From an uncultured Bacilli bacterium (GTDB taxonomy: Bacteria > Bacillota_I > Bacilli_A > RF39 > UBA660): a stretch of 36,482 nt of DNA. Of the stretch, positions 1-34,290 are shown in pieces (within the stretch, counting starts at the first letter, position 1; every line of letters begins with the position of its first letter). The DNA is taken from the NCBI GenBank assembly GCA_947630105.1, contig CANRGD010000005.1, positions 1 to 36,482 of the forward strand. The letters run 5' to 3'. Below the pieces are notes generated by a model. It searched no databases. It had not been told where the DNA came from and saw nothing but the letters and a program-made list of their open reading frames with translations. Made by a program: the position numbers and the translations under genes.

Positions 1-70
1 CTTATGGAATTATTATACTATAACTACCCCCCCCCGTGTCAATGTTAAGTCTTATTATTTCCCACGGAAT
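1..70 (-). repeat. Copy 1 of a ~70-bp direct repeat containing a sigma70 promoter with a poly-G spacer; it drives a gene beyond the left window edge
   Basis: Aligns to 905-975 with 7 mismatches and 1 indel. Minus strand: TTGACA (42-37), 19-bp spacer containing G9 (35-27), TATAAT (17-12). Confidence 0.9.
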
Positions 71-95
71 GGAAGTATATTTTATCTTCTATATT

Positions 96-863
96 TTAAT
101 CCTGAGTACTATATTCTAATGTTATATCGCCTATTTTTACACTATAAGAGCCATCAACAGCTCCAGCATCTGTTGCTCCTTCTACTACACCTATACTAAT
201 ATAAATTTCTTGATATTTATATGTTTTTCCATCATATTTACCCAACTTAGTGTTAGTAATATTAGAATATGTACCATTTTGACTATTGAAAGGCACCTCA
301 TCCCCATGTGTTATATTATCTACTGTAACTGCAATGCCCTTACGATTAGGCGTCCCACCAATATAAATAATAGTTCGCACACGAACTTCTAAACTTTTAC
401 AAGCTTTATCTACTAATTCTTTAGACGTTCCATTGCCTGGTATACAGACTATTGGTTTATCATAACCTGTAACATTGGCAATTTTTATACTTTTAAAATA
501 TGCATCAAATTCTCCATCATTTATAGCAAAAACAGAATATGTTAAACGACCATTATTATCTAAAGAAGTAAAATTTGCTCCTAAATTTGTAATTTTAGGA
601 TTTGCTCCACTATTATCTATATGGGCATCTACTGCTGTTCCTGCTGCACCTGGAGTAAAAACTGGTTTAATATCACTTGTATCCATCACTGTTACTGATT
701 TAGAAAATTTGACACTAAAGTTAGCTTCATTTGCTTTTACTGTAGCACTAATATTTTGAATATTTAAGCTTTTAGAAAATACGGCATAAGCAATTGTTAA
801 AAAGACAACGGCTATTAACATTGAAGTTACAGCTATTATTCTTCCTTTTCTGTCTCTTTCCAT
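96..863 (-). CDS. Secreted/surface protein, TasA/camelysin-like, with a SipW-type-like signal peptide (255 aa)
   Basis: ATG at 863 follows GGGAGGT RBS (better than the ORF-track start at 890). Basic N-terminus, hydrophobic stretch, then AYAVFS..LNI. Beta-rich body with an N-D-G-x-x-D-A-Y motif, two Cys and a C-terminal I-x-L-x-Y strand. Family call is by pattern only. Confidence 0.6.
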   Translation of the reverse strand: MERDRKGRIIAVTSMLIAVVFLTIAYAVFSKSLNIQNISATVKANEANFSVKFSKSVTVMDTSDIKPVFTPGAAGTAVDAHIDNSGANPKITNLGANFTSLDNNGRLTYSVFAINDGEFDAYFKSIKIANVTGYDKPIVCIPGNGTSKELVDKACKSLEVRVRTIIYIGGTPNRKGIAVTVDNITHGDEVPFNSQNGTYSNITNTKLGKYDGKTYKYQEIYISIGVVEGATDAGAVDGSYSVKIGDITLEYSTQD

Positions 864-904
864 TATAGTACCTCCCATAAAAAAATACACAAAACTTCTA
901 TTTT

Positions 905-975
905 CTTATGAAGCAATTATACTATAGCTACCCCCCCCCAGTGTCAATATTAAGTCTTATTATTTTCCACGGAAT
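905..975 (-). promoter_or_regulatory. Copy 2 of the direct repeat: sigma70 promoter with G9 tract in the spacer, upstream of 96-863
   Basis: Minus strand: TTGACA (947-942), 20-bp spacer containing G9 (939-931), TATAAT (921-916). Confidence 0.9.
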
Positions 976-33069: not shown

Positions 33070-34290
33070 ATGAAAGATTATATACATTTTTTCAAAAACA
33101 ATGATGCTTTAGTATGTCACATATTTGACAGTAAATCTCATAAAACAAGAGTTATTACAAATCCTAAAAATATAAACTTATTATTATCCATTTTAAAAAA
33201 TTATGGTTATCAAAATATTAAAGGGAATTATTATATTACTAAAGATGTTAAAGAAATTTATGCAAAATATTTAAAAACAATTAAAAAAAATAAAAATACT
33301 CTAAAAATTTATAATATTCTAAAACATCCATTTAGTTTGAAAAAAGTAAATAAAAATACTAAAAAAATTATATTAAGAATTTTTTTAGCTTCTACTGTTA
33401 TCATTTATATATTAAGCACTAAAAAAGAGCCAACATTTGATGAGGGTACAATAGAAACTGAAATTACAATTGATGATAATAATTTTGATGACTATATAGT
33501 AGAAACTGAAATAGTAATTGATGAGGGTAGTTTTGATGATAATATGGAAGTTTCAACCCCAGAAACAACTAAACCATTTACTATTCGATATGAAACTTCA
33601 GCTCTAGATGATACTTATAATGAAACTAATGAAAGTTCTTCTTCTGAAAACCAAAAATTCAAATTTTCTTTTGAAGATAGAACTGAATCTGAAGCATACG
33701 AAAATGTAAAAAAATATGAAAGTATATTTAAAAAATATGGTGAAATGTATGGTATAGACTATCACATAATTATGGCTATTGCTGCTCAAGAAAGTAATGG
33801 GGATCATTACAATAATCTTTACAATGGCCCAGCTGAAGGTATAATGCAAATAGAAAAATCTGTACATTTAAATAACACATTAACTGCCTATAATTTTCTT
33901 AATAAAAGTGAAGAATCAATAGTAGTTACAAAAGAAGCTTTAGATGATTTAGAAACTAATATAAAAATTGGAACTATGATTTTACAAAATGTTTTAACTC
34001 AACAGAATTACAATATACCCCTAGCAATTCAAACATATAATTTTGGTCCTGGAAATATTCAAAAAGTTCTTAATACTTGTAGTTCAATTGAAGGTATAGA
34101 TACTACTTCACTTCTTAATGATAATTATGAATGGATGAATTATCGTGAATTTTTAAATATAGGTGACCCTTTATATGTTGAACATATTCTAAGCTATATT
34201 CCTAGTAAAACTATTACTGTAACAACTACTGCCGGAGAAACAAGAAAACTCGAATTATCTAATGAATATTCCAAAACAGCCTCATTATAA
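33070..34290 (+). CDS. Membrane-anchored SLT-type lytic transglycosylase
   Basis: AIAAQES, GIMQI, NIKIG, YNFGPG; TM helix and acidic linker. Confidence 0.88.
   Translation: MKDYIHFFKNNDALVCHIFDSKSHKTRVITNPKNINLLLSILKNYGYQNIKGNYYITKDVKEIYAKYLKTIKKNKNTLKIYNILKHPFSLKKVNKNTKKIILRIFLASTVIIYILSTKKEPTFDEGTIETEITIDDNNFDDYIVETEIVIDEGSFDDNMEVSTPETTKPFTIRYETSALDDTYNETNESSSSENQKFKFSFEDRTESEAYENVKKYESIFKKYGEMYGIDYHIIMAIAAQESNGDHYNNLYNGPAEGIMQIEKSVHLNNTLTAYNFLNKSEESIVVTKEALDDLETNIKIGTMILQNVLTQQNYNIPLAIQTYNFGPGNIQKVLNTCSSIEGIDTTSLLNDNYEWMNYREFLNIGDPLYVEHILSYIPSKTITVTTTAGETRKLELSNEYSKTASL
33436..33549 (+). repeat. Imperfect 48-bp (16-aa) intragenic tandem repeat
   Basis: ETEITIDDNNFDDYIV / ETEIVIDEGSFDDNME; GAAACTGAAAT at 33454 and 33502. 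Confidence 0.75.

Follow-up and report, generated by a model that had tools for sequence, protein, structure and literature searches.

Poly-G promoter cassettes on a secreted-protein family suggest phase variation in an uncultured gut Bacilli lineage

A stretch of 36,482 nucleotides (nt) from an uncultured Bacilli bacterium (GenBank assembly GCA_947630105.1, contig CANRGD010000005.1, positions 1 to 36,482), hereafter the window, opens with two copies of a repeat of about 70 nt that flank a gene for a secreted protein of 255 amino acids, and each copy holds a promoter with nine consecutive G between its -35 and -10 elements. What does such a run do in the promoters of an AT-rich genome, and could it switch the genes that follow it? 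Taken together, the analyses presented here identify slipped-strand phase variation of promoter cassettes on a secreted-protein family as the best explanation, to which we assign a probability of about 0.65. The genome comprises 1.106 Mb in 60 contigs with 25.4% guanine plus cytosine and is rated 87% complete; its contigs are designated C with a number, and the window is contig C5.

A sequence-only reading of the window had placed the two repeats at 1-70 and 905-975, with 63/71 columns identical. This alignment was reproduced with one 1-nt indel, and the features are as that reading described them, but they lie on the minus strand. The likeness between the repeats ends at 70/975, and over the cassette the two window copies share 86-93% identity. 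Promoter A (916..947, minus strand), of a layout conserved in eight copies by alignment, comprises TTGACA (947..942), C941, T940 and nine G (939..931), and reads TTGACA-CT-G9-TAGCTATAG-TATAAT, with TATAAT at 921..916 and a spacer of 20 nt to that hexamer. The G9 homopolymer inside its spacer (931..939, minus strand; C9 on the plus strand) is the presumed slippage site, and the gene driven by this promoter is the 255-amino-acid family member (96..863, minus strand; ATG at 863, stop codon at 98..96). Promoter B, the second cassette copy (12..42, minus strand), comprises TTGACA (42..37), C36, G9 (35..27), TAGTAT (20..15) and TATAAT (17..12), and reads TTGACA-C-G9-TAGTTATAG-TATAAT with a spacer of 19 nt. 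No T stands before its G9 homopolymer (27..35, minus strand) as it does in promoter A, which makes the spacer 1 nt shorter. The contig ends 11 nt past promoter B, and the gene that it drives lies outside the window. These two tracts are the only G/C runs of at least 6 in the 36.5-kb window, as the sequence-only reading had implied in stating that no comparable run occurs elsewhere in it.

Across the genome, G/C runs of length 6 occur eight times (7-19 expected), of length 7 once and of length 8 not at all, that is, at or below expectation. Runs of length 9 occur ten times (0.015-0.09 expected) and of length 10 three times (0.002-0.015 expected), giving 13 runs of at least 9 where fewer than 0.1 are expected, a hundreds-fold excess. 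Because the run-length distribution is bimodal, the long runs must be kept by something other than base composition. Nine of the 13 lie in promoter spacers, and one interrupted copy (G4AG6) brings the number of poly-G promoters to 10, in each of which the run stands between the -35 and -10 elements (TTGACA-C(T)-G9-...-TAGTAT/TATAAT). Seven runs belong to the window-type cassette (C3:25757, C5 with two, C10:1147, C29:134, C37:8441 and C46:83), the interrupted run is in an eighth copy of it (C39:5176), and a second promoter type carries a run at C3:24828 and C35:8801 (TTGATA-18-TATACT and TTGACA-17-TATACT). Among the eight cassette copies, the run takes the form T+G9 in five, and G10, G9 without the T and G4AG6 in one each. 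Downstream of the 10 promoters are seven full family genes and two N-terminal fragments cut by contig ends, while the DNA following the tenth is off its contig; all nine promoters with visible downstream DNA precede members of one family. The genome-wide search that the sequence-only reading had called for has thus returned 10 poly-G promoters on a multigene family of secreted proteins.

Could the runs be artefacts of sequencing or assembly, such as two-colour poly-G calls or collapsed repeats? Several copies are near contig ends (C5:12, C29:134, C46:83), and many of the G9 matches in other genomes fall at contig positions 1-10, as such artefacts might. Contig ends at these sites are nevertheless expected from a repeated cassette, and the runs are flanked on both sides by conserved promoter sequence, also lie deep in contigs (C3:25765, C37:8456, C35:8801) and recur in independent assemblies from several sources. 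We regard an artefact as most improbable.

The remaining four of the 13 runs are intragenic, two of them in frame. Compared with a phasome of the Campylobacter type, the genome shows, from sequence alone, a modal run length near nine (10 runs of 9 and three of 10) and one frame-splitting run, and the putative promoter switches and intragenic runs together form the pattern of a multi-locus phasome. The frame-splitting G9 run (C2:60941-60949) divides a gene on the minus strand into open reading frames (ORFs) of 355 (60905-61972) and 121 (60618-60983) amino acids, next to an intact paralogue of 451 amino acids (C2:59191-60546). Neither the split gene nor this paralogue had a Pfam match, and the split gene has the look of an intragenic phase-variable locus sampled while its frame was OFF. 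The three other intragenic G9/G10 runs (C17:23683-23692, C58:281-290 and C47:514-522) are hosted, one each, by a glycosyltransferase-like ORF that stands at a contig end and has the run at its 5' end, by an ORF of 300 amino acids and by an ORF of 437 amino acids, and the 300-amino-acid ORF adjoins a membrane acyltransferase-like ORF of 513 amino acids.

The family behind the promoters is large. A tblastn search of this genome with the window protein returned 18 full paralogues with 29-65% identity, and there are about twenty copies in all, for the most part scattered across at least 13 contigs instead of forming one array. Seven of the 18 have poly-G promoters, two begin at contig starts within the conserved leader, and the others have ordinary promoters, including TTGACA-17-TATAAT (C45), TTGCAA-17-TATTAT (C52) and TTGCAC-18-TATAAT (C11), or stand in operon-like tandems. 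One such tandem, at C10:14000-18700, holds three family genes with gaps of 52 and 17 nt and no G runs, preceded by an ORF that ends with a similar C-terminal motif; it is apparently an operon-like, non-switching branch of the family. The sequence-only reading had taken the window for the first unit of a tandem array. What the window itself contains is one gene and a second promoter that the contig end cuts off from its gene, and the dispersal of the family does not fit an array in this genome, but true tandem arrays in which units have a G9 promoter of their own do exist in a relative (three of three units at homologue locus L034 and four of seven at L033).

The paralogues are most alike at their two ends, over the first 55 residues (conservation 0.65 for residues 28-55) and the final 20 (0.71 for 236-255), and least alike at residues 161-235 (0.34). 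Pairs of genes can be mosaic. For example, identity between the copies on C37 and C42 is 100% in the first 60-nt window and 90% in the next, drops to 34-41% over the second half and returns to 68% at the 3' end, and other pairs behave similarly. Such mosaics, together with the 86-93% identity of the cassette in the window, are what would be expected if the family varied mainly by recombination or gene conversion between paralogues that share cassette and 3' end, the G run being a passenger of the duplicated cassette. However, this would leave unexplained both the intragenic runs and the G8-G11 runs in unrelated promoter backgrounds of other genera, and we consider it quite unlikely as the main source of variation. 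Recombination and slippage are not exclusive either, as promoter switching and size variation are described side by side for the vlp genes of Mycoplasma hyorhinis (PMC10502178).

No database name could be attached to the family. The window protein had no Pfam match save a chance one to YrhC at E 0.15, no relevant NCBIfam match was found among the 18 paralogues, and a word-index search for homologues returned 12 proteins, none of them named. Searched with a family profile, representative protein clusters gave 2286 matches at E <= 0.001 and 462 at E <= 1e-30, and some of these clusters carry the family domain as the N-terminal module of proteins of 300-650 amino acids. Since the window protein's own cluster has a single member, no second strain is available for comparison. 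Two cysteines (window-protein residues 140 and 155) occur without exception in the 18 paralogues, and C155 is retained throughout a wider alignment of 114 sequences, which suggests that in this anaerobe the extracellular protein has a conserved disulfide or metal site.

Does the arrangement recur in other organisms? In at least six further genomes of uncultured gut Bacilli, homologous genes have G8-G11 in their putative promoter spacers, at varying positions within the spacer, and the promoter design proposed from the window is therefore found again upstream of homologues. Our set of homologue loci consisted of nine loci from public metagenome-assembled genomes titled 'Bacilli bacterium' and one titled 'Clostridia bacterium'. 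Four loci have G8-G9 runs about 45 nt upstream of the start codon (G8 at L032, four G9 at L033, three G9 at L034 and G9 at L035) and five have none. At L033, two G-free sister promoters (TTGACC-17-TAT[TC]AT) stand beside G9 promoters of the form TTGAC[CT]-C-G9-7 nt-TATTAT, likewise with 17-nt spacing. This comparison is the best evidence that the putative hexamers work and that the run is spacer filler. Furthermore, the run abuts the -35 element in the window and at L033, and the -10 element at L032, L035, L029 and in genome G201, and it is therefore more likely spacer filler than a binding site.

Within the genus, G10-G11 runs immediately next to a hexamer that resembles a -10 element, the spacers being about 19 nt long, were found in 7 of 30 loci with N-terminal homologues in three genomes (G201, G205 and G206). 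A further genome of the genus, G188, has G10 in a TTGACA/TATACT spacer (locus L029), where the downstream ORF encodes a different secreted protein and not a homologue of the family. In G011, which belongs to another genus, all 25 runs examined are G9, and 21 of them share a conserved promoter context; the genes behind these promoters belong to two secreted-protein families, one with the same IGFAAV-type N-terminus. The second of these, seen at G011 loci L050-L069 behind the same G9 context, has the N-terminus MNMKKVIL...LCNAKDIEY...DALNDLY and lengths of 184-661 amino acids, and a similar protein follows the G10 promoter of G188. The family alignment profile matched nothing at E <= 1e-8 in the poly-G-rich genomes G008, G099, G085, G097 and G011; the runs of G011 precede more distant relatives and another family. 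A G9 run occurs at least once in 47 of 100 other genera of the taxonomic family and in none of the remaining 53; pattern matches number six or more in 25 genera, and overlapping matches indicate tracts of up to about G13-14.

What kind of protein would such promoters control? The window protein has an N-terminal charged stretch and a hydrophobic helix (residues 5-32), a conserved AYAVFS / LNIQ..SATV segment (residues 25-45), a beta-sandwich (residues 50-255) with a hypervariable part (residues ~161-235), and a conserved C-terminal strand. Its AlphaFold model, an N-terminal helix followed by a beta-sandwich, has a mean predicted local distance difference test (pLDDT) score of 85.4 over the full length and 92.8 over residues 28-255, with low confidence for residues 33-44. 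Judged by these features, the family proteins are presumably secreted surface structures. Modeled as a homotrimer, the protein scored 0.46, and the best of three controls scored 0.00; in the calibration, 20 of the 30 proteins known to be pairs of one chain attained this mark of 0.46, as did 1 of the 23 solved as single chains, and the trimer job differed from that calibration in having three copies and a custom alignment. At least 81% of contacts are shared between runs, with a partner pLDDT of at least 78, and the runs place residues 28-42 of one copy against residues 49-53, 88-95, 113-124 and 243-253 of the next.

This predicted contact resembles a donor-strand arrangement, such as has been described for residues 28-38 of Bacillus TasA (PMC9674648) and for AbpA (PMC9245690). 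Like TasA, AbpA (7ueg) and the 0406 threads (7pnb), the family would consist of secreted jelly-roll subunits of about 200-260 amino acids, each of which, once its signal peptide is removed, would donate an N-terminal strand to the next subunit, as the model predicts. The nearest named cluster by language-model features was camelysin/PF12389 (score 0.92, 186 shared features), a kind of row that often arises by chance. As in the TasA system, SipW-type peptidases are encoded in the genome: three such genes (TIGR02228) scored above the cut-off, which answers the sequence-only reading's suggestion to look for sipW. They lie at C7:29789-34341 and C1:32992-34883, flanked by small secreted proteins with GGTYARYVSE- or SYARYV-like N-terminal motifs that had no Pfam match. 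Unlike the TasA system, there is no operon resembling tapA-sipW-tasA around the family genes, there are about twenty divergent paralogues in place of one matrix protein, and two cysteines are invariant.

Based on these observations, we hypothesize the following mechanism. A cassette that consists of the upstream motif, the -35 element, the poly-G spacer, the -10 region, the leader and the signal-peptide codons would head about half of the family. Its G9/G10 run would gain or lose a G by slipped-strand mispairing during replication, which would shift the distance between the -35 and -10 elements and make each gene strong, weak or off, independently of the other copies, such that ten promoters could yield a population with many surface combinations. 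According to the structural models, the proteins would be exported, lose the N-terminal helix and polymerize head to tail, the strand of residues ~28-42 being inserted beside the first and last strands of the next subunit, as in TasA and in archaeal thread and bundling pili, which would leave the hypervariable residues ~161-235 exposed. Different paralogues could replace one another or mix in one fibre, given that donor strand and groove are conserved between them. It is possible, but doubtful, that this amounts to a family-wide, multi-locus poly-G phasome in uncultured gut Bacilli whose main targets are interchangeable donor-strand-exchange fibre subunits. In that case each cell would build its fibre from its own selection among about ten to twenty paralogues, alike in donor strand and groove but different on the exposed face. 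A polymer would then vary combinatorially, in antigenic or adhesive properties, within a non-pathogen lineage and at a scale so far tied to pathogens.

A number of results weigh against this account, in its genetic or its structural part. The exact cassette had no match in 200 other genomes of the taxonomic family, one of the same genus included, and the pattern likewise had none in Joint Genome Institute (JGI) metagenome contigs; in metagenome contigs the protein profile found only two distant loci. Half of the paralogues (9/18) have no G run in their promoters. As for the protein, the nearest structures among representatives of the PDB were the Sulfolobus 0406 thread 7pnb (Z 7.8, root-mean-square deviation 7.3-7.5, 167-168 residues aligned) and the Pyrobaculum AbpA bundling pilus 7ueg (Z 6.8-6.9), followed at rank 15 by the TasA fibre 8aur (Z 5.5-5.6), and all three fall below the noise guide of Z 8; 7pnb and 7ueg were, however, the first two neighbours in both runs. 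Foldseek returned generic beta-sandwich sugar-binding modules as its sole matches. There was no sequence match to TasA/PF12389 in Pfam, in NCBIfam (18 paralogues) or in a PDB profile search, and the PDB sequence profile of 114 sequences gave no match beyond chance at E 0.2. Also, the SipW-type genes (contigs C7 and C1) are not adjacent to the family. The label 'TasA-like' given by the sequence-only reading is thus supported in part, at the level of predicted fold and assembly mode only, and lacks a sequence match to PF12389 or the PDB; it is reasonable as a working model of how the protein would act, not as a family assignment.

A further difficulty is that the ON length cannot be named for the window promoters, which have three -10 candidates each. 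In promoter A these overlap as TATAGT (926..921), TAGTAT (924..919) and TATAAT (921..916), and the corresponding spacers in promoters A and B are 15/14, 17/16 and 20/19 nt. A consensus scan also calls TTGACA-17-TAGTAT in promoter A (947..919) and TTGACA-16-TAGTAT in promoter B (42..15), with 10/12 positions matched in each. The spacers of 19 and 20 nt reported earlier are correct as distances to the perfect TATAAT, but apply solely if TATAAT is the working -10 element. The conclusion once drawn from them, that both promoters are low or OFF, is unsafe, as three overlapping candidates (15, 17 and 20 nt in promoter A) bar reading the state from the sequence. A G-free paralogue promoter with the same -10 region (C10:8620) aligns in register with the interrupted copy on C39, and relative to that register the T+G9 and G10 copies are 1 nt shorter and window promoter B is 2 nt shorter.

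The lengths of the runs raise a different question, namely whether they vary at all. In Logan, contigs assembled from four sequencing runs of rabbit-gut and gut metagenomes that contain the window DNA list no insertion or deletion in either window tract, although such contigs drop rare variants and thus do not bear on heterogeneity; no RNA run was among those listed as containing this DNA. Runs are uniform per genome, with 25/25 G9 in G011, 7/7 G9 at L033/L034 and 5/5 G10 in G201. These are the observations that would follow if the run were a fixed-length functional promoter element, contacted by a regulator or acting as a stiff G/C block, selected as such and not switching at useful rates, an explanation to which the presence of mismatch repair genes in the taxonomic family is also congenial. 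Against it, the run lies next to the -35 element in some genomes and abuts the -10 element in others; G-free sister promoters with the same hexamers and a 17-nt spacer in the same array make a G-specific contact unnecessary; intragenic runs of the same length occur in the same genome, one breaking a reading frame; and copies differ by one-base steps, with tracts from 9 to about 14 across the family. A fixed element is therefore unlikely in our judgment, but it deserves some weight. Under slipped-strand phase variation, a uniform length would be the population consensus at the mutational mode, since a consensus built from a metagenome would show the mode at every locus. For comparison, the poly-G/C tracts of Campylobacter jejuni are described as having a modal length of nine, with G8 mostly gaining and G11 mostly losing a unit (PMC3401435).

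Slippage might also be raised by a defect in mismatch repair. However, mutS is present in this genome and mutL in 98 of 100 relatives, poly-G-rich ones included, and there is therefore no obvious repair defect to raise it. This, too, counts against rapid switching. The gene mutL was not found in the 87%-complete genome, where mutS is followed by nusB, xseA and spoIVB, and its absence here is probably an assembly gap. Loss of mismatch repair as a driver was dropped in view of the mutL genes of the relatives. C. jejuni is without mismatch repair, a state that has no counterpart here.

How new would such a system be? Homopolymers in the promoters of surface-protein genes whose run length sets promoter strength are well known from Neisseria meningitidis porA (poly-G) and opc (poly-C) and from Bordetella fim (poly-C). 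As in these, a G/C homopolymer here separates or adjoins the core elements of the promoter of a gene for a surface protein; unlike these single genes of Gram-negative pathogens, it belongs to a paralogue family with 10 promoters in an uncultured, commensal-type Gram-positive lineage, across many genera. By analogy, the closest parallel to the whole system is the vlp family of M. hyorhinis, in which each gene is described as having its own transcript and its own promoter homopolymer, where insertions and deletions turn the gene on and off independently of the others (PMC10502178). Both are multigene families of surface proteins in small, AT-rich genomes, with conserved 5' parts, a variable remainder and a homopolymer in the promoter. 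They differ in that the run is poly-G here and poly-A in vlp, that switching is a prediction here, and that the subunits here are predicted beta-sandwich fibre proteins of gut Bacilli that carry sporulation genes. Nor does the family share the lipobox of the Vlp proteins: in the alignment, none of the 18 paralogues has a cysteine at the end of the N-terminal hydrophobic stretch. The phasome of C. jejuni is likewise made up of numerous G/C tracts, most often nine long, in an AT-rich genome, and affects surface structures, glycosyltransferase-type genes included (PMC3401435, PMC4965091, PMC8437040), but most of its tracts are inside reading frames, whereas 9/13 are in promoter spacers here.

The design of the promoter switch is thus known, and the less expected parts are the protein family and the spread of runs across the taxonomic family. 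Our literature searches found no report of such a system for this lineage, in agreement with the sequence-only reading, which knew of none. Multi-locus phase variation driven by repeats has been seen as largely a trait of pathogens, and a 2025 review asks whether this reflects database bias and calls for wider phylogenies (PMC11868660). In this respect, an uncultured gut lineage with small genomes carries the sequence signature of phase variation, tied to large families of secreted proteins that have no database name. If the proposed mechanism is true, it would extend contingency loci to commensal gut Bacilli, provide a handle on how uncultured organisms face antibody and phage pressure in the host, and draw the attention of structural biology to a large family of probable fibre subunits that has so far gone unannotated. 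In addition, loci of this kind disrupt assembly and can lead to wrong variant calls when strains are resolved in metagenomes.

Several smaller features complete the description of the window. A conserved motif, CCGTGGAAAA, lies about 16 nt upstream of the -35 element of promoter A (963..972, minus strand), and its equivalent at promoter B is CCGTGGGAAA (58..67, minus strand), both placed by alignment. The general form CCGTGG(A/G)AAA is found at about this distance in five of the eight type-1 cassette copies and may be a regulator site; a reverse-oriented TTTTCCAC occurs at a similar distance in the poly-G promoters of L033/L034, in another genome. Between promoter A and the gene is a conserved 5' leader (864..915, minus strand) with a ribosome-binding site, GGGAGG (876..871), 8 nt upstream of the ATG at 863, and the region 1-1100 of the window had no Rfam match at E <= 1 that would point to a leader RNA. 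Downstream of tex, seven genomes of the same genus and five other relatives are free of G/C runs of at least 7, and the locus beside tex is therefore specific to this species. Finally, two tandem units of 48 nt, 75% identical to each other, are present at 33436-33531 of the window, inside an ORF of 406 amino acids (33070..34290, plus strand).

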